Part shown: piece after piece, positions 11,663 through 42,779 of the stretch
Layout: every line of letters starts with the position of its first letter
How positions within the stretch are numbered: the stretch's first letter is position 1
Source of the DNA: Pseudogymnoascus verrucosus
Taxonomy: Eukaryota
DNA: 64,000 nt
Direction: 5' to 3' (one strand)
NCBI GenBank assembly: GCA_001662655.1
Contig: KV460217.1
Notes under the pieces: generated by a model
Databases searched by the model: none
The model's input: the letters and a program-made list of their open reading frames with translations, nothing else
What the model was told of the DNA's origin: nothing
Made by a program: the position numbers and the translations under genes

Positions 11663-12893
11663 AATTAGGCAATGTTGTGCTGTGTTGTTTAATTTATAAA
11701 AACCTACTATTGATTAGGGGTCGGCGTATGGAATGTATTAGCGCAGCGTTATTATAAACAGAGATTTATAGAGGAAGAGGGCGGAATGGATACACACCGT
11801 ATGTTTACAAAATCCTTGCCTCCTGCGAGACAATGTTGTATGTCCGACGTGCAGTTGCAAGGAGGCCGCGTGCACACCCGAAAGTTCAACGCTATATAGT
11901 TTTGATATGTGATCAACTCGAAGCTGACTCTGTAAGGGACTTCTGGTCTACAAGGGGCTTCAAGCCCAGGTAGACTCCCATTGTTATAAGAACACATGAA
12001 ACACCCGCCATGTTTTCCCTTTCAGAATAGAAAGATGATATGACTGCTATCTATCACGTGGAATTTATCATCGGCGACAGTCCACTTTTGAAAGACTTGG
12101 CCTTGATGACCTGTGATACTTGTCTCGGAAGCGGCCAGCAGCCTCGAAATTATGGAACCTGTACTTCCTTCACCACGGTAAATTCTTTTTTGTATTTGTC
12201 TGTGTTACTGCCAACTCATATGTAATATGTATTATGGGTATTACGGGTACTCTCCTGTCTCTGGAGTCATTCTGTCTATTCGTACTCGTTGCTGACCTAA
12301 GATCTCGAGATAGTTGACAGCGGAGCGGGGCCGCCAAGACATGTCAATACCCCACACTGGAGCCAAGCTATTTGCTAGTGTACGCCTAAACCAACGCTCT
12401 AGGCTCAGGCGGGTATAAATGGGCCACAACAGGAGATAGCACCGATGCTTCTATCGGCGCCGAGACAGTATGATTCAAGGTTCCCCGCAACTCAGTGCCG
12501 TCGAAGTATGCGCCGTCGCGAAGTCATAGACCGAGCCACCCGAAGCATTTGAAGCTCGAAGGATCGGATTGAGCTTACGGTAATCTTACTTTGGAAGGAG
12601 CTCAAAGTTATTCTTGGCAACTTGCGCGAAAGTGTTGCTGACACCGCAATTTCACAGACCATGCGGCCTCTCAATGCCTGCCAATAACGCCGAGTAAGCC
12701 CGCCTTTGTGACCGCGGAGTGGGCCATGAGCGTGCCGGTGCCTCTTGTAGCTCATATCGCGCTCCAATAACCCGAGGGTTGTGACATGGACTTAAAATCT
12801 CACGTGAACATCCCTGTGGGATACCAATTGATAAAGGATGAGGATCCCGTAAAGAGAGTTGAAGGCCAAAACCGCAAACTCTTTCGAAAAGCG

Positions 12894-15477
12894 ATGGCGC
12901 AAATTGCCCTCCGACGCTGGTGGGCTCTTGCCCTCCTTCTGCTGATAAACGCCGTGCCGTATATTCAAGGACAGCAGTCGCCTTCGTGGGCCCAATATAT
13001 TATATCACCTCAGAGTCTCACCGTTCTACCTTCAGCGATCCTAGAAGACCGCACCGTTGGCGATGTTACCAACCCAAGTGCCTTGCTCACTAGTGGTGGT
13101 GATGTGACAACGCTGAAGAGAGCCGCCCCAGTAGCTCCACCTTCATGGCCAGCGGGAACGACAGCAGACGCTTCTAGCTTTCACCCGGAAAATCAAAATA
13201 ACGGCCAGACGCGGACGTATAACCCTAGCAATGCTATTGATGGAAACGAAGCGACCTTCTGGAACGACGACACAGTCGGTGCTTATCCTGATATCTTAAC
13301 ACTGACAATACCAACTGCGACTACTCTATCCGGCATAACAATTCTGTCAAGCTCGGACGGCGTTCCAGTGAAATTTACAGTAGAGGCTCTTCAGGGTGGC
13401 TCATGGGGCGCAGTTGCCACTGTCAGCGACAATGCCGCAGTCTTGATCCAGGTCCCATTCGCTGCGCCCGTTAATGCGAAAGGGATCCGTATTACCGTAA
13501 CTCAAGCTCAGGCGACTGGCCAGGGAGAATACACGAGGATTGCAGAAGTCTGGCCTGGTATAGTTGCTGGACAATTGGCCCCTGCGGTTGTTCTTGACTT
13601 TGGGAAAGTAGTCGTTGGAAAGCTCTCTATCAAATTTGCTGGCGCATCGACCAACAACCCGGGCATACGATTGGCATTTTCAGAGACAACACAATACTTA
13701 TCGGACCTAAGCGATTTCTCGCGGTCGAACAATGTTAGTTTGGGAGCCCACTTTGAAGCATGCTGTACTGACCGTTTAGGGGGATACCATTACACCTGGT
13801 TCGGACCAGATTGCTGTCAAGTCTGATCCATACACTTGGACTGATAATCACGGGTGTGAGGATGGCACGAAAGTATGCGCTGATGGCTTGCACGGCTTCA
13901 GATATGTTAAAATCTACCTTGACGCGCTTGCTGCCGATGCTCCAAATACCGAGGCTTCTGGATCCGTGTCTATCGATTCAGTCTCCCTTGCATTCTCAGC
14001 GTATCTAGGGACAGAAGACACCTACTCCGGCAATTTTGAGTGCTCTGATGCTGCACTGAACGAATTTTGGTACGCCGCGGTTTATACTAACGATCTTTGC
14101 ACTGATACATTCCGACTTGAAGACACAGAGCCAAGGAATGCCGGAAGTCCCACCCTTGTTGGCAAGGAGGTGCTTTTCGACGGGGCCAAGCGTGACCGTG
14201 ATCCCTATGTTGGAGATTTAGCTGTCGCCGCCAGAACGTTGTATCTCACGCATAACTTTAGCATTGCAGCTGAGAACGTTTTAGCAGATTTGGCGGATCA
14301 CCAAAGGAGCGACGGCTGGATCCCTCCAGCATCTATCAACAACTACCAGCTACAGCTATTGGATTACCCCCTCCACTGGGTGACCTGTACCTACGATCTG
14401 ATCGTATACACATCAAGCGATGCTTACGCAGCAAAGTACTATCCAACAATTTTAAAGGTGCTGGACAACTTTTACCCCTCCATGACAGACAGCGCCACAG
14501 GCCTCATCAACAAACCAGATGACTCGCCATATGGAGACTATGCCTTCCTCAACCGCCATGGCTTGATCACGTACTACAACGCACTCTATGTCCAAGCACT
14601 CAGAAATGCCGCCAGCATCGCAACCTTTTATAACCACCCCGATGACGCCAAGCGCTGGACGGAGCGTGCCCAAACCGTCTCCGACGCTATCAACGCCCAT
14701 CTTTGGGACGCCAGCGTTGGCGCCTATTTCGACTCCTCGAAAACGACCAATCACGGCCAAGATGGTAACGGTCTCGCGGTCTTGAATGGAATTGCCGACA
14801 GCACTCGATCAGCTTCAGCCCTCAAGTACTGGGCCTCCCTCGCCCTGCCCTACGGCAACCCTTTCTTCGACTCAGATGTCATCGGCGGCGGTTTCTCCAA
14901 GCGCGTGTACGCTTTCATCTCATACTTTGAGCTACAAGCGCGTTTTGCCTCCGGAGCAGGCGACTCTGCCATCGAGGAGATCAAGCGCCTGTACGGGTGG
15001 ATGGCGACGCACGACCCGAAGAGCACGTTCTGGGAGGGTATTGGGACAGATGGCTCGATGTATGAGGCGGGGTTCACGAGCGCGACGCATGGCTGGAGCA
15101 CAGGCATCGTGCCTCTGATGTCTAACTACGTGTTGGGGATCTTGCCGACGGCACCAGCGTTCACGGAATGGACCGTCAAGCCGATGCTTGTAGGGGGGAT
15201 TACGTGGGCGAAGGGGCAGGTGGACACGCCTCATGGGCCGTTGGTGGTGGATTGGACGACGGAGAATGCGAATTCACAGTTCCAGATTACGGTTACGGTG
15301 CCAAAGGGCACGAAGGGGACCGTCTCGGTGCCGGTGAGCAGTGAGAAGGTGATGGTAGCTGTAAATTCGAAGCTGGTGTATGCGGTGGGAAGGAGGGCAT
15401 TTAATCCGAAGTACAAGGATGGCCACGTTACAGTGCAGCTCGATGATGGGAAGCACGTTATTACGGCGTCGAAGTAG
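12894..15477 (+). CDS. Secreted alpha-L-rhamnosidase (GH78) with an inserted F5/8 type C (CBM32-like) module
   Basis: Signal peptide; GH78 motifs HGFRYV, LFDGAKRDRDPYVGD, TFWE and SATHGWSTG; F5/8-like NAIDGNEATFW...RITVT..RIAEV. Intron 13734-13779. Confidence 0.9.
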
Positions 15478-24132: not shown

Positions 24133-25779
24133 TGTGCGGGGGTTGAGAGGGGCGAGGGAACATTGCGGATAGCGTGTCGGAGTTGTTTGGCTTGTGGTAG
24201 TTTGAATTTTGTGTAGACAAATTGTTCTGTAGTGTGTGATAAATGACGATGATATCGTGTGACGTCAAGACTAGATTGCCGCTATAAATATTAGAGTTGT
24301 GTACCTTCACACTCGAAATTTAGTGTAACGGTACTAATCCTCTTAGTCCGTATGCCTAAGCATGTTATTGGATAATACAACGTTCTGCCCATACAAACGC
24401 TATAAGGAGTAGTTGTGAAGTTATACATATTCCATGGTAAGAATGAGGAGCTAGATGAACGGCGGCATTATTAACTTTAGCAGTGACTTACTACACTAAC
24501 AACCCCACACAACCCCACACTTCCCCATGTTTGTTCCCCATATTCTGTGATGGAGAAGGCGATGCAGCTGAGCATCGTAAGTTAACCATATCGACCGACA
24601 ATGGGCTGACCACAGGTAAAAAATATAAAGCCCATCGTTGGTTCGTTTCAGTGCCGCTTTCTACCCTTTTCCTCCATTTTTAAGTAAACTATACTCCTGT
24701 ACTCCTCTCTTATCTGAACGTTTACCCGCACCTGAAACCACATATCAAACTGGCACCATGGCCACATCGGCTCCATCGATCCCTCTCACCAACATCGGAA
24801 AAAATGATGAAGAGACCCAAGTCCCAACCGAGTCTCCAGCTATACGCCAAGCTCGTCGGGAGCGAAGACTCGAAATATTCCCTATCCTCTTCGCCGTCTT
24901 CCTAGGTTGAGCCATCATCGGAGGCACCACCTGTGCACTTGCCCTTAGGGTCCAACGCGGCATCACCAACGCTGGCGGCCCTGTGAACCCCGGCGACCGC
25001 GAGCGCTGGGTGGAAGCAGCCCGCACCAAAGTCTACGACGCCTGTTACAACGGGTGCGATGCCAGCCCGAGCTGCGCCTCTGAAGCCTGCGCTAAGACGG
25101 CAGCGCTCAACGTCACTGGCGTCGTCTGTGATGCGAACTTGCTGTGGGATCAGAGGGATAGGTACCCGGTTCCGTGTCTGGAGGCTGTGGCGGAGATATA
25201 TAAGAGGAGGCGTTCGGGACCGAGAGACAGGAGCACTTGAATTTGCTTATTATGATGATTTTCATTGTACCTGGTGGCGCCCTATGCGGATTACTCGCAT
25301 GTCGTATCTTCCCGTGTAGTGTTGACGAACGCAGGCATAAAAAGCTGGAGAAGGCACGCCAGAACCTCGCCATCCAGCCGCAAAGGATTCCTTGTTATCG
25401 ACCCCCTCCACCGCTGCCGACGACGTCAGGAACTAGGACTGGAAATACAACTACGCCATTGCAAAAGAAGGTATCACCACCGCCAAAGGCACCAAAGAAG
25501 ATGGCACCGCGTAGTCCTAGTTTGGACCAGTTATCCCTTGAAACACTCGTAAATGATGCAGCTACCCCAACACCGGCTACGACCCCATCGTCAGCCAGTA
25601 CTTTGTCGACGTCAACCGAACCTCCATTGGTGTAGTTCATGGTTCATGGCCGGATGTCGAACTGCTACCATAGCAGGCGCCACACTAAAACAAATATGAA
25701 TCTACTAGACTGGGTCAACGACGTTTTACCGAGCGTTGTTGGATGCGGTTTTAAATTAACTCATGCTATAGAGGAGGCG

Positions 25780-26135
25780 AAGCATGATGAATGCATGCGC
25801 AAGTGTATAATTTTTACGACGCTGTCTCATTTTTTTCTGTATCCCTTTCTTAACTGTTGCTTTTTGTTTAGATTTTAATGTTTTTGATTTGTATTAGACG
25901 AATCTTAGTTGTCTTCTAGTAATAAGAATAAATACATGATTATGTTTAGAGTTTAGGGGCCTCTTAAGATGTTAAGAACTGTAGGAGGGCAAGAACGATG
26001 GATGGGAATTCAAGAAGGAAGGAGCGATGGCTAGGAATTTAGGAAGGAAGGGGCGATGGCTAGGAATTTAGAAAGGAAAGAACGATGGCTAGGAACTCAA
26101 GAAGGAAAATAACGATGGTTAGGAACTTAGGATAG
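25780..26135. mobile_element. AT-rich insertion (possible degenerate TE remnant) interrupting the pseudogene
   Basis: Absent from the paralog, which reads EAVEGDTNLRI contiguously. T-rich left part and minisatellite right part. No TIR or TSD recognised. Confidence 0.45.
25985..26128 (+). repeat. Minisatellite, ~5 copies of a 29-30 bp unit (approx. AAGAAGGAARGRRCGATGGCTAGGAAYTY)
   Basis: The core CGATGG(C/A/T)T(A/G)GGAA recurs five times with ~29-30 bp period. Confidence 0.9.
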
Positions 26136-26626
26136 GATATGAATCTGCAGATTGTGAACCCCTTAATTAAGAGTGACTGATGGGTATTGAATAAAGTGGA
26201 TGGGTATAACTTAACTTCAAACGGGGAAACAGACTAGTCGATTTAGTTCTTACATGATATTAGAAAAAGCCATAAATAAGCCTCATTACATGTATTTCGT
26301 ATTATTACCACGGTATAAGAATGAGGAGCTAGATGAAGGCCGTTGTTATTAACTTATTAGTTAGTTTGCTAAACTATTAAGCCCACACCAACCCCGCATT
26401 TGTTCCCCATTCTATGAGGGCGAACATGAGGCAACTGAGAATCGTATGTGAGCTAGCCAAATACCATCCGATGATGAACTGACCACAGGCAAAAACTATA
26501 AAGCCCCATCCTCGGTTCGATTTAGAGCCTCTTTCTACTTCCATTTATTTATTTCGGCTAGAGTTATACTCCTTTCATACTCGTCAATTTAATCCGCGCC
26601 CGAAAAGCGCATATTAAACCGGCACC

Positions 26627-27877
26627 ATGACCAAACCTACTCCTCGGCCAGATGATGGATATTCCCTATATGTGTCCGACCCCACCCCATCATTCCCGCT
26701 CGAGCGTATCAGAAAACAAGACGAAGAAATCCAAATACCACCCACCTCCCCAACACCACGCCGATCCCGCCCCGACCTTACCCTGAAAATCCTCTCAATC
26801 CGCCTTGCAATCCTCATAGGCTGTGCCATCACCGGAGGAAGCACATACGCACTCGCCCGTGACGTCCAACGCAGCATCGAAACCTCTCGTGGTGCTATGA
26901 ATTCTAGAGATTACAAGCACTGGATGCATATAGCCCGAACCACTGTCTACGATGCCTGCTACCACGGCTGTAGAAACTGTAATAACCCCAACTACGCCTA
27001 CGACGCCTGTGCCAGGACTGCAGAGGTCAACGTCACGGGGGTCATATGCGACGGAAACGTGATGTGGAATTGGAAGGATAGATACCCGGCAGCGTGCCTA
27101 AAGGCTGTGGGGGAAATCTGCAAGAAAGACATGTTCAGAAGCGCTAGACGCGATCATTTGAAAAAGTTTGCCTATATAGTCCTCACCGTCCTCGCTGACG
27201 TCGTTTTTGGATTCCTCACATACGGTATATTCTGGTGTTGGATCGGCCAATACAGAAAGCACAGAGCGGTAAAGGCGCGCCAGAGAAGCGCTGTTTGGCC
27301 GAGAGAGAATGGATATGGATATGATCAGCCCCCTCCACCGCCATCAACAATGTGGGAAAGCGGGACTGAAAAGACACCCACGCCATCGAAAACGGGGGTA
27401 GCGCCGCCCCTGAAGGCGTCGAAGAAGACGACGGGGCGGCGCAGTCTCAGTTGGGGACAGTTATCGATCGCGGCGCTCGCGACGCTGCCAGGAAAGACTG
27501 CTGCGTATCCCTGCACGGGCTACGACGATGTCGCTAACCAGTACTTTGTCGATGCTAACCAGAGTACCTTTGGTGTAGTGAGTGGCTGGATGTCGAATTG
27601 CTACAAGTACAGACGCCGTAGTGGCAAGCACTGGCCCACTCACACTAGGAGAAATGTGGCTCCGCTAGACTATGTCAATGAAATTCTACCGAGTGTTGTG
27701 GGATGCGGGTTTGAACTGGTTGAGGCGGTGGAGGGGGACACGAATTTGAGGATTGCGAATCCGTTGATTGAGAAGGAGTGGAGGGTTATGATTAGGGTGA
27801 ATGGGTATAACCTAACTTCGAGCACGGAAACGGACCAGTCGATTCAGTGTTTACATGATATCAGTAAGAGCAAGTAA
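26627..27877 (+). CDS. Uncharacterised 416-aa membrane protein with two Cys-rich putative luminal domains
   Basis: Intronless ORF, TATAAA upstream, hydrophobic segments, CYHGCRNC..C..C..C domain. Supported by the adjacent diverged paralog. Confidence 0.85.
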   Translation: MTKPTPRPDDGYSLYVSDPTPSFPLERIRKQDEEIQIPPTSPTPRRSRPDLTLKILSIRLAILIGCAITGGSTYALARDVQRSIETSRGAMNSRDYKHWMHIARTTVYDACYHGCRNCNNPNYAYDACARTAEVNVTGVICDGNVMWNWKDRYPAACLKAVGEICKKDMFRSARRDHLKKFAYIVLTVLADVVFGFLTYGIFWCWIGQYRKHRAVKARQRSAVWPRENGYGYDQPPPPPSTMWESGTEKTPTPSKTGVAPPLKASKKTTGRRSLSWGQLSIAALATLPGKTAAYPCTGYDDVANQYFVDANQSTFGVVSGWMSNCYKYRRRSGKHWPTHTRRNVAPLDYVNEILPSVVGCGFELVEAVEGDTNLRIANPLIEKEWRVMIRVNGYNLTSSTETDQSIQCLHDISKSK

Positions 27878-33787: not shown

Positions 33788-35612
33788 TTAACTAGCTAAC
33801 ACCCACCCACCCACCTCCTCCTGCTTACTGATAGTCCTATCATCAATGCCGTCCTCTAACAAAAACCGAACACCAGCCTTACACCCTTCCTCGGGATCAA
33901 ACACGAGATCAACATCCTCCACCCTCTTCCTCCCCTTCCCTTCCCCACCAACCCCTTCAATAACCACCACCCTCCCCGCCACTCTAGCTAATAAGTTACT
34001 ATCCCATAACCCCTCTCTCCTCCCCTCCGCTCCCGCAAGTAACCGCACCGCTTCCGAACGAATCACCGGATCGCGACACCTCAGCGCGACGAGATATAAC
34101 GGTCCCAACACACCGGTATCCATCCCCACTTTCCCCCCTCTTCCCCCGCTTATCCCGGTTTCGTCATCTCCGAGCGCGTCTTCCATCTCTATTATCGACC
34201 GTGCAAGTGCAACTATACCCGCGAACTGCGGTGTATACGAACTCCACACCTCTTCGCAACCAGCAAGTGACGCGGGGCTCAGAGAGAGCGTCGCGACTGC
34301 GTCGTGGAGCTTTAATAACATCCCTGCTTGTCGCTCGCGAGGTGTGAGAGGGGGGTGGGTGGCGAGGTAGGTTGAGAGGGCAGTAGAGTAGCGGGCCTGG
34401 AGATCTGCTAAATAGATGCGAGACGTATGTCGATGAGCTTGACCGCGGGGCGAAAGGCAGTAATCATCATTATTGGCGGAGGAGCAGGAGGGGGGTGATG
34501 AGGAGGCGGATGACGCGGAGGGCTGGAGGGTGTAAAGACTGTAATTCCACAACTCATCCCCCCTCGCCCTCGCCTCCTCCAACGATGTAAACGCATAATC
34601 CGTGCACGGCGCGGAGAAAGGACGTAAACGCGTCCGTCGCGTGGGGAGGAGTTGTGTCGCTTGTGTATCTAACCTCATAACTAGTTCTCGCAGCGCGGGG
34701 AGGGGCGTGTAGGGTAGACTCGGGTATGCTGGGCGCTGTTTGTTGGCGTGGGAGGGGGAGTGCGAGTGCGAGTGCGAGTCGGAGTGGGACTGGGACTGTA
34801 GTTCAAGGAGCAGGTTCACCCCATTATCCAAGTGCGTCAGCGCCGCTGCGTGGTAGCCGCGGAGGGATTCGAAAATGGTGAAGAGGAGACACGCAATCAG
34901 GGTAACATCAACCCTCCTCTCTCCCGCCGGCCTCGTCAAGCCGCGGATTGCTTTGACGTACTGCCTTACCGCGAACTCCCCGTCCCCGTCCCCGTCCCCC
35001 CAAGTTCTGGTGTGGATGGAGTTGCTGTGTAAGGCGCCTAACGCCACAGCGGCGTGAAAGATAGAGGGTTCGTGGAGTGACGCTTGCAGGACGTGGCGGG
35101 ACCAGAATGGGGATGTGAAAAGCCCGCTGAGGTGCGCGGTGGTGAGGGTGCGGAAGGTGTGGAAGGAGTCCTGCTCTGAGGGGGTGCCGGGGAGAAGAGG
35201 GGTTGGGGCGTTGGTGATGGCGGGGGAAGGGAGCGGGGTGGGGAAGTGAGTGATGGTATGTGAAGGGGAGTGGGTGATAATGTGGGTTAGGAGGCGAGGA
35301 GGGGAGTACCCATCGCACACCCGGCCAGTGGAGAGGCAGCGCGTGCAGTGCGGTTTGGATTCATCGCATTTGACGTGTCTGATCCTACGGGGCGGGTTAG
35401 CTTGTATGATTTAGTTAGGGGGGTAGTATATAGGTGCTGGGATTTATAGGGGATTTATAGGGGAGGGTAGGGCGAAGGAGGGTTTAGTGGGTTGGGGAAG
35501 TGTGGATGGGGGATTTGGGGGGAGCGTACTTGCAGGTTAGACAGCCTGTTTTGACTTTTGGTTTTGAAGCTCGCGGCCTCTTGGTAGTAGAGGGGGACGG
35601 TTTACGAGGCAT
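33788..35612 (-). CDS. Zn(II)2Cys6 transcription factor (Fungal_trans_2-type C-terminus)
   Basis: KTGCLTCK|IRHVKCDESKPHCTRCLSTGRVCDGY split by intron 35385-35529; FWSRHVLQASLHEPSIFHAAVALGALH; PLYLVALRCRDPVIR..RREGLWDS. Confidence 0.92.
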
Positions 35613-41756: not shown

Positions 41757-42779
41757 ATGGCGACAACCGACTCCCCAGAAGTGTCCGGGGAAGACGGAGA
41801 GCTTGACGAAGACCTACTCGACGACATCCTAAGCCGCGCCCAGGAGTGCGAGAAATCAAGACAGTGGGAGGAATACAATGAGCTCCGACTCCAAAGCATC
41901 GACATGTTCTCACAGCATTTCGGGCCAGACCACAGAATACCGTTAGACTACAAGATGAACCTCGCCTACAACTATCGCACGCAAGCAAAATTCCCACAGG
42001 CTGAATCCGTTGCTCGCGATGTTGTCGAGCGGCGGCGCAGAGTACTCGGTGATCATGCCGACACAGCTAGCGCCATGAATAGCTTGTCGATTAGCATCAA
42101 GGCCCAGGAGCGAGTGGAAGAAGGGCTTAGGCTGGACGAGGAAACGCTGGAAATGCTGCAGCGTGTGCAGGGAGATGGGGAAGATGCTACACAGGCAGCG
42201 ATGCAGAATCTCGGTAATAGCTATTTCAATGTCGGCCGGCACGAGGAGGCGGCCGAGCTTCACCAGAAAGTCGTTGACTTCCGGGTACAAAAATTGGGAA
42301 AGAATAACCGCGAGAGTATCATCACTATGGATATGCTCGCGAGGGATTTCACCGCCCTTGATCAATGGGACAAGGCGAAACAGCTACAAGAGGAGGTGAA
42401 TGGTCTGGCAAAGGTGAACTTCGGCTACGGCGACAATACTACCATCACCTGCATCCTGAACCTATTAAAAACGTACCGTCATCTGGGGGAACCAGATAAA
42501 GCACTAAGGATGATGGAAGATGCATTAGCGTCCTTCCGACAGCTAGGTCGTGATCACACCGAGCCCAGCGCGTCACTCATGAAGCAGCTAGCAATAGTGT
42601 ATTCTGATGAAGACAGGTTCGAGGAGGCTGAGCCGCTGTTTGAGGAGTTTTATGAGTGGATTAAGGGGGTTTTGGGACCTGATCATGAGGTGACGGAAGA
42701 GGCGAGATTGGATTTGACAGATAACTTGGTGGCCCAGGGAAAGCTTGTGTGGACAAGCCCCTACGGGGCTTTGGAATGA
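41757..42779 (+). CDS. Stand-alone TPR-repeat protein (kinesin-light-chain/NLR-type ~42-aa TPRs)
   Basis: About 7 repeats of the LGxDHxxT...M.NLA type: FGPDHRIP, LGDHADT, LGKNNRES, LGRDHTE, LGPDHEVT. Intronless. Confidence 0.85.
   Translation: MATTDSPEVSGEDGELDEDLLDDILSRAQECEKSRQWEEYNELRLQSIDMFSQHFGPDHRIPLDYKMNLAYNYRTQAKFPQAESVARDVVERRRRVLGDHADTASAMNSLSISIKAQERVEEGLRLDEETLEMLQRVQGDGEDATQAAMQNLGNSYFNVGRHEEAAELHQKVVDFRVQKLGKNNRESIITMDMLARDFTALDQWDKAKQLQEEVNGLAKVNFGYGDNTTITCILNLLKTYRHLGEPDKALRMMEDALASFRQLGRDHTEPSASLMKQLAIVYSDEDRFEEAEPLFEEFYEWIKGVLGPDHEVTEEARLDLTDNLVAQGKLVWTSPYGALE

Follow-up and report, generated by a model that had tools for sequence, protein, structure and literature searches.

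The gene and its family

The 64,000-nucleotide stretch of contig KV460217.1 (GenBank assembly GCA_001662655.1) of Pseudogymnoascus verrucosus analyzed here (herein referred to as the window) contains, at 26627–27877 on the plus strand, an intronless open reading frame (ORF) that encodes a protein of 416 residues in one reading frame. This protein (herein the query) comprises, in order, an N-terminal tail, a first transmembrane helix (TM1), a helical domain with six family-wide cysteines (D1), a second transmembrane helix (TM2), a basic loop that lacks cysteine, a short hydrophobic stretch and an alpha/beta domain (D2). An initial annotation of the window, made from the nucleotide sequence alone, had listed such elements and proposed that signal peptidase processes the encoded polypeptide into more than one product. 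All of the listed elements are present in the ORF, and we consider it probable that the short stretch ahead of D2 is an internal signal peptide at which signal peptidase would cut the precursor into two chains.

The ORF is a genuine gene. Its closest named relative, the hypothetical protein V499_08630 of Pseudogymnoascus sp. VKM F-103, is 96% identical over the full length, and the single-exon model therefore agrees with an independent annotation. A first, word-indexed homolog search reduced 6836 candidates to 22 homologs, and a profile search against 1.84 billion representatives recovered 136 clusters at E ≤ 1e-3, 118 at E ≤ 1e-10 and 88 at E ≤ 1e-30. Three alignments underlie the analysis: A1, with 20 sequences (truncated matches P0015, P0018 and P0019 left out); A2, with 57 sequences (the query and 56 matches spanning both domains, with fragments and the long two-stretch models P0028, P0038, P0045 and P0051 left out); and A3, with 62 rows, used to model D2. 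Counts given out of 57 refer to A2, which includes homologs down to ~26% identity. Using A1 as query we also found 13 metagenome loci, at nine of which the whole arrangement lies in one open frame; three of the remaining four end at a contig edge, and one is broken inside D2, probably by an intron.

Named members are confined to three classes of Pezizomycotina: Leotiomycetes (Pseudogymnoascus, Halenospora), Sordariomycetes (Xylaria, Whalleya, Biscogniauxia, Podospora, Cercophora, Cladorrhinum, Lasiosphaeria, Coniochaeta, Thyridium) and, through the single species of Trematosphaeria recovered, Dothideomycetes. Every retrieved name is "hypothetical" or "uncharacterized", with the sole exception of a fused model of 801 residues called "Amidase signature enzyme" (P0156, in the cluster of P0029, from Coniochaeta hoffmannii), which probably joins an adjacent amidase gene to a family gene. 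No Pfam family matched the query at E ≤ 10, the 57 members gave scattered sub-threshold matches only (save for one model, presumably a fusion, that has a Myb domain), and the D1-only and D2-only relatives had no Pfam match above the cut-off. A literature search found no papers on six locus tags of the family, and among the literature matches listed for internal signal peptides (15 of 36, 15 of 75 and 20 of 220 papers) there was no fungal cellular case. Based on these searches, the family, both of its domains and a natural internal signal peptidase site of this kind appear to be undescribed.

A probable signal peptide between two domains

The stretch that precedes D2 in the query (27422–27505, plus strand; residues 266–293) reads KKTTGRRSLSWGQLSIAALATLPGKTAA and is followed, from residue 294 onward, by YPC. 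It can be divided into an n-region (KKTTGRR), an h-region (SLSWGQLSIAALATL) and a c-region (PGKTAA), with the cut predicted after A293. The initial annotation had already singled out this second signal-like stretch together with its AxA and Y-x-C motifs, and these are not products of chance, as they recur throughout the 57 aligned homologs. Every sequence of A1 (20) and of A2 (57) has, ahead of D2, the tripartite build of a cleavable signal peptide. The 15 residues preceding the hydrophobic core carry a net charge of +1 to +10 (median +5), positive in every one of the 57 members; the core itself, measured as the longest uncharged run, has a median length of 13 residues (range 9–29) and is 17 residues or shorter in 44; and proline or glycine occurs between positions -8 and -4 in 48.

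The residues around the predicted cut are constrained in a manner that fits the -3/-1 rule. Position -1 is alanine in 54 members (glycine in two, threonine in one), and position -3, counted as small and uncharged in all 57, is occupied by alanine (31), threonine (11), valine (10), serine (3), glycine (1) or isoleucine (1). The corresponding entropies are 0.35 bits at -1 and 1.80 bits at -3, with an unconstrained 3.15 bits at the intervening position -2. Downstream of the cut, position +1 is aromatic in 44 of the 57 and proline in one, and position +3 is cysteine in 52. The core sequence drifts between clades and retains its character throughout, and free drift with a kept character is how signal peptides evolve. 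The features of a cleavable endoplasmic reticulum (ER) signal peptide, that is, of a substrate of Sec11 and the signal peptidase complex (SPC), were all found here: a basic n-region, a short h-region, small residues at -3 and -1 with a free -2, and a position +1 that is almost never proline. Taken together, these comparisons of sequences make predicted cleavage before YPC well supported.

The length of the core also falls in a range where internal cleavage has been described. In yeast, signal peptidase cleaves most of an internal segment of 14 leucines that precedes a small-x-small cassette, one of 17 leucines is cut partly, and no product is reported for one of 20 (PMC8277137); the less hydrophobic a signal is, the better it tolerates a long N-terminal extension (PMC8277137); and internal signal sequences of endogenous proteins are cut with the aid of the C-terminal helix of Sec11 (PMC13578380). 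The dependence of cleavage on core length dates back to an earlier report (PMC2120157).

Several observations weigh against cleavage, and some of them bear on its principal alternative, namely that the protein remains an uncleaved, three-span membrane protein in which the third stretch starts translocation of D2, then stays behind as a tilted or short anchor and tethers D2 beside D1. The predicted signal is preceded by ~265 residues that include two transmembrane helices and a folded domain; in yeast, a longer segment before the signal lowers cleavage efficiency, and Spc1 shields the segments of membrane proteins from signal peptidase (PMC8277137). The uncharged run reaches 18 residues or more in 13 of the 57 members, lysine or arginine occurs between -7 and -2 in 40 (which is atypical of c-regions), and the predicted template modeling score (pTM) of the whole-protein AlphaFold2 model, 0.65, suggests that D1 and D2 may be placed relative to each other. 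The conserved alanine at -1, aromatic residue at +1 and cysteine at +3 could also be kept partly for the fold of D2, because high model confidence begins near residue 291. In addition, the family matches include no convincing D2 that stands alone behind an N-terminal signal peptide of its own, the short ones looking like fragments or doubtful gene models, and the cut is predicted from sequence comparison.

Nevertheless, an uncleaved third span is unlikely. The median core of 13 residues is short for an anchor and has basic residues on both flanks, and at the third stretch most members lack any 19-residue window suited to membrane insertion. The entropy pattern at -3 and -1 is not readily explained by a plain anchor. 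Finally, the helix modeled within the hydrophobic segment (residues 276–285) reaches a predicted local distance difference test (pLDDT) score of only 51–57, unlike TM1 and TM2; such a low score is expected for a segment that is removed and not packed.

The predicted membrane hairpin and its lumenal domain

The part of the precursor that lies upstream of the internal signal peptide is predicted to be a membrane hairpin. Its first 50 residues (26627–26776, plus strand) form an N-terminal tail that has no hydrophobic segment, is modeled with low pLDDT and is basic beside TM1 (PRRSRPDLTLK), and that we predict to be cytosolic. TM1 (residues ~51–76; 26777–26854, plus strand) has a low insertion energy and lies within a helix spanning residues 49–91 (pLDDT 86–91). 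Its C-terminal end reads ...GGSTYALA and continues into RD, and the initial annotation had taken this first AxA for a cleavage site. The site is not conserved: among the 57 members, the column of A77 holds valine in 26, alanine in 13 and isoleucine in 8, and the modeled helix runs through this position uninterrupted. The prevalence of these three residues after TM1, which does not resemble a signal peptidase site, together with the continuous helix, shows that TM1 is a signal anchor, uncleaved and with its N-terminus in the cytosol.

D1 (residues 77–180; 26855–27166, plus strand) is a small helical cap, modeled with pLDDT >90, on the lumenal or extracellular side. Most of the 57 members have exactly six cysteines here, and the columns of these cysteines and of a WNW..RYP motif are invariant; the query has a seventh, C165, which is specific to its clade. 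The NVT sequon to which the initial annotation had drawn attention is present in D1 of the query at residue 135, but only 12 of the 57 members keep it. TM2 (residues ~181–206; 27167–27244, plus strand) provides the strongest hydrophobic window in nearly all members, lies within the modeled helix 155–223, and is predicted to act as a stop-transfer helix that pairs with TM1. It is directly followed by QYRKHRAVKARQR and by a loop (residues 207–265; 27245–27421, plus strand) that is rich in proline, threonine and lysine. In the query this loop has 12 lysines and arginines versus four aspartates and glutamates and no cysteine, and a like trend is seen in most of the 57 members. As judged with a Hessa-type scale and the Kyte–Doolittle scale in 19-residue windows, only TM1 and TM2 have the capacity to span the membrane, the third stretch being too short in essentially all members.

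The AlphaFold2 model of the whole protein, built with A2, has a mean pLDDT of 81.0. The long helices 49–91 and 155–223 form a hairpin that is capped by D1, and both the TM1–D1–TM2 region and D2 exceed a pLDDT of ~85 (mostly >90). The region between them (residues ~221–290) has block means of 44–59 and falls below 50 over most of 228–274; the loop is accordingly predicted to be disordered. A Foldseek search of the whole model against the PDB found no match at E ≤ 1e-3, a fold search against BFVD found no viral match at the same threshold, and a VIA-wide search returned generic helical hairpins only (residues 46–228, Z up to 9.4, which is below the level that is meaningful for helical models).

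Five distant relatives (P0138, P0140, P0147, P0151 and P0152) have the TM–D1–TM architecture and lack D2. Since such relatives exist, D1 is an older module, to which D2 was probably joined later. A fusion with a once-separate gene for a secreted protein would account for a signal peptide in the interior of the precursor.

The second domain and the topology of the precursor

D2 (residues 294–416 and the stop codon; 27506–27877, plus strand) begins with YPCTGY and is predicted to be a soluble alpha/beta domain. In the query it contains four cysteines, an NQS sequon at residue 311, an NLT sequon at residue 395 and three consecutive arginines at 329–331. The initial annotation had read the latter as a polybasic processing site; the arginines are present, but only in the closest Pseudogymnoascus relatives, at a place where most other members carry a cysteine-rich insertion. 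Modeled alone with A3, D2 reaches a pLDDT of 95.7 and a pTM of 0.86 and consists of a beta-sheet packed with three helices. The fold check that the initial annotation had recommended yielded a confident model of D2 but no neighbor in the PDB: Foldseek found nothing at E ≤ 1e-3, and in an independent search of 48,161 chains the highest Z was 4.2 (4f3q_A, from a YebC protein; root-mean-square deviation 4.1 over 77 residues) and no chain reached Z ≥ 5, in a search where models without a clear match typically reach Z 7–8. D2 is therefore without a detectable relative among solved structures. A search of the ESM Atlas with the whole protein gave no usable match; for D2, the highest-scoring clusters (0.79) include some DUF6736 members, and we rejected this assignment, as the score lies within the noise and finds no confirmation in Pfam.

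The sequon at N395 is kept in 53 of the 57 members with eight different middle residues, that at N311 is kept in 30, and the number of cysteines in D2 is mostly even, ranging from 4 to 14. The near-universal sequon and the mostly even cysteine counts indicate that D2 is very likely lumenal. Were D2 cytosolic, one would expect the third stretch to form a peripheral or amphipathic segment and the cysteines to bind metal. The insertion in D2 varies strongly in length and cysteine content, and its C-x-C-rich form in many members could in principle bind zinc. We regard a cytosolic D2 as very improbable, given that the free middle residue of the sequon, the mostly even cysteine counts and the correct polarity of the basic n-region all argue against it, and that D2 of the query keeps its modeled fold without any cysteine-rich insertion.

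Short linear motifs also distinguish the two sides of the membrane. The N-terminal tails and loops of the family contain 25 [PL]PxY motifs in 4,968 residues, distributed over 19 of the 57 members (the query has none), versus a single one, an LPYY in D2, in the 13,620 residues of D1 and D2; shuffled tails and loops contain 2.6 ± 1.6 and, over 500 shuffles, never more than 10. These PY motifs are read by cytosolic ligases of the Rsp5/Nedd4 type, which places the tail and the loop in the cytosol and separates them from D2. Hydrophobicity, loop charge, PY motifs, sequons and cysteines together lead to a predicted topology in which the N-terminus is in the cytosol, D1 outside, the loop inside and D2 outside. 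The enrichment of [PL]PxY is, in addition, a hint of Rsp5-type ubiquitin-dependent sorting in part of the family.

A model of processing

We hypothesize that the precursor enters the ER membrane as a helical hairpin, with a cytosolic N-terminal tail, TM1 as signal anchor, D1 stapled by disulfides in the lumen and TM2 as stop-transfer segment, and that the basic, disordered loop would remain in the cytosol. The internal signal peptide (residues 266–293) would then reopen the translocon, D2 would pass into the lumen, where it would be N-glycosylated and form disulfide bonds, and the SPC would cleave after A293, between TAA and YPC. The expected products are a membrane subunit of ~293 residues that includes D1 and a soluble glycoprotein of ~123 residues, D2, that lacks an anchor of its own; since both would come from a single precursor by one cut, the two chains would be made in equal amounts. 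D2 might then be secreted or be retained at the surface by D1. The proposal of the initial annotation that one gene gives rise to a cysteine-rich membrane part and a C-terminal product of this size is strengthened by comparative evidence for an internal signal peptidase site, although the cleavage event itself we infer. Our best guess at the function is a two-chain complex of the secretory pathway or cell surface that is specific to filamentous ascomycetes. The polyprotein interpretation is well supported by the pattern of conservation; any functional label is speculative.

Two further observations concern the junction between the parts. P0006 and P0007 have an insertion of 20 residues (60 nucleotides) exactly between the predicted cut site (AAA) and Y-x-C, which resembles an unspliced short intron. 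Separately, a clade made up of P0008–P0013, P0057, L001 and L002 has a conserved methionine 27 residues before the predicted cut (…PPRM-RGGGRSAGR…). P0057 is a gene call of 165 residues that begins at this methionine, and it may be a mere contig fragment. The methionine may serve as an internal start, from which D2 alone would be made with an ordinary N-terminal signal peptide.

Comparison with known precursors

For viral polyproteins, cleavage of internal signal peptides by the signal peptidase of the host is textbook knowledge. In the bunyavirus Gn–Gc precursor, an ectodomain is followed by a transmembrane segment, a cytosolic tail, an internal signal peptide and a second ectodomain. The fungal precursor has the same order and, with its predicted cut, would likewise give two chains from one ORF. 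Processing of the bunyavirus glycoprotein precursor is described in a published report (PMC7926653). However, the fungal family is cellular and intronless, and its TM1, an uncleaved signal anchor, pairs with TM2 in a hairpin; its domains are also far smaller. Classing the family with the viral glycoprotein polyproteins is not supported, as the gene is found in fungal genomes with ordinary fungal genes around it, and a search of viral contigs with A1 as query found no relatives.

The yeast killer preprotoxins K1, K28 and SMKT have an N-terminal signal peptide that is cleaved and are processed at dibasic sites by Kex2 in the Golgi. They resemble the fungal precursor in that one ORF is proposed to give several cysteine-rich secretory products and in that self-protection is tied to the precursor. 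In the family described here, by contrast, the N-terminal segment is an anchor of 25 residues after a tail of 50, the sole dibasic site (the three arginines) is shared by close Pseudogymnoascus relatives only, and it is signal peptidase that would make the proposed cut. The analogy with killer preprotoxins drawn in the initial annotation is therefore not supported by either the anchor or the dibasic site, and killer toxins are absent from the listed fold matches of D2.

The closest cellular parallels come from yeast. In the LepCC and LepH2 constructs, Rrt6 and Ecm38, as in the fungal family, a short hydrophobic core with a small-x-small cassette behind it comes after other sequence, and internal cleavage in yeast depends on core length and hydrophobicity (PMC8277137; PMC13578380). 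In the endogenous cases listed in these reports, Rrt6, Ecm38 and Kar2, the signal follows an n-region of only 10–33 residues, whereas that of the fungal family follows two transmembrane helices and a folded lumenal domain. Furthermore, the N-terminal product in the fungal family is itself a conserved domain protein, unlike those of the endogenous yeast cases.

Recent work has added only a few cellular proteins and engineered constructs to the list of cleaved internal signals. If our interpretation is correct, the family would represent a class of natural SPC substrates in which a cut site located after two membrane helices and a folded domain has been selected across three fungal classes, with conserved domains in both products, and in which a genetic device supplies two partners of the secretory pathway in fixed one-to-one amounts. 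It would be a ready natural test case, for laboratories working with yeast and Neurospora-type fungi, of how the SPC chooses internal sites. The family also adds two uncharacterized domains, one of which (D2) has a confidently predicted fold with no neighbor among solved structures.

A decayed tandem paralog and the question of conflict

Upstream of the gene, at 24758–26279 on the plus strand, DNA alignment identified a dead tandem paralog that was duplicated together with its promoter region and is disrupted by in-frame stops, frameshifts and an insertion. As the initial annotation had stated, it retains most of the cysteines and all of the sequons: six cysteines in D1, two of the four in D2, and all three sequon positions. 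It has an in-frame TGA at codon 51 (in TM1), a stop after D1 and further stops in the tail, charged substitutions and a 12-nucleotide deletion within the signal-peptide core, and a frameshift that falls right at the boundary between signal peptide and D2 (here YPN). Its D2 region is split by an insertion of ~350 bp that holds a 29-bp tandem repeat (4.6 copies, 83% match, 25991–26125). In another Pseudogymnoascus, V501_05080 is an open frame of 292 residues with the TM1–D1–TM2 arrangement and the same frameshifted C-terminal tail (…TPTPATTPSSASTLSTST…). Since this tail is common to both, the TGA in TM1 arose after the signal peptide and D2 had been lost; comparison of the two sequences indicates that in the paralog lineage D2 was lost first and D1 outlasted it, a D1-only frame having persisted in at least one species.

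This order of decay is the sole, weak hint in favor of another proposal of the initial annotation, that the gene encodes a toxin with its immunity factor or a ligand with its receptor. Under such a scheme, the secreted D2 would serve as a toxin or as a ligand in recognition, the D1 membrane subunit would act as the matching immunity factor or receptor, and the producer would always be protected because D1 and D2 are made together. The tandem duplication with decay in the window is compatible with this, and the frameshift loss of signal peptide and D2 common to the paralog lineage and V501_05080 is the pattern expected of an orphan immunity gene. The existence of D1-only relatives, the high variability of the D2 insertion in length and cysteine content, and a dN/dS of 0.81 in D2 versus 0.25 in D1 between L001 and L002 (few sites, one pair) point in the same direction. 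Nonetheless, we consider a conflict system improbable: searches of the query and the 57 members against Pfam, and of D2 against PDB folds, matched no toxin family or fold, D1 and D2 are both recognizably conserved over three fungal classes, which is atypical of arms-race genes, the compared loci have no conserved partner gene or mobile-element context, and plain pseudogenization also leaves the 5' half open.

We likewise give little credence to a more specific version, a killer or recognition module of filamentous ascomycetes in a single ORF, in which D2, freed by signal peptidase as a secreted glycoprotein of undescribed fold, would act on other cells and the co-translated D1 hairpin would neutralize or receive it in the producer. 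If this version held, the paralog lineage, V501_05080 and the distant TM–D1–TM proteins would be orphan immunity genes. In addition, the part of the signal peptide left after the cut would be a type II stub with glycine, serine and threonine in its core, of the kind taken by signal peptide peptidase, so that the loop with its PY motifs might be released or re-sorted. The internal signal peptide, at which a cellular precursor would be divided into two partner chains, remains our preferred explanation of the gene.

Genomic surroundings

The gene is surrounded in the window by ordinary fungal genes: glycosidase fragments, an MFS transporter, a TPR protein, a carnitine acyltransferase and a Zn2Cys6 factor. 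Comparison of the window with the 13 metagenome loci revealed no shared neighbors except a Zn2Cys6 transcription factor. This factor (Zn2Cys6/Fungal_trans_2) is encoded at 33791–35410 on the minus strand of the window, ~6 kb from the gene, and a factor that is 25% identical is encoded ~1 kb upstream of the family member at one metagenome locus (L007, 3397–4896). We rejected it as a conserved neighbor and regard the co-occurrence as probably due to chance, because that family of factors is very large. An ORF at 41757–42779 on the plus strand consists of TPR_10/TPR_12 repeats of the type seen at the C-terminus of fungal NLR-like proteins. Finally, ORF pieces at 12786–15477 on the plus strand, with F5/8 type C, alpha-L-rhamnosidase C-terminal and six-hairpin domains, likely belong to one glycosidase gene that is split by introns.

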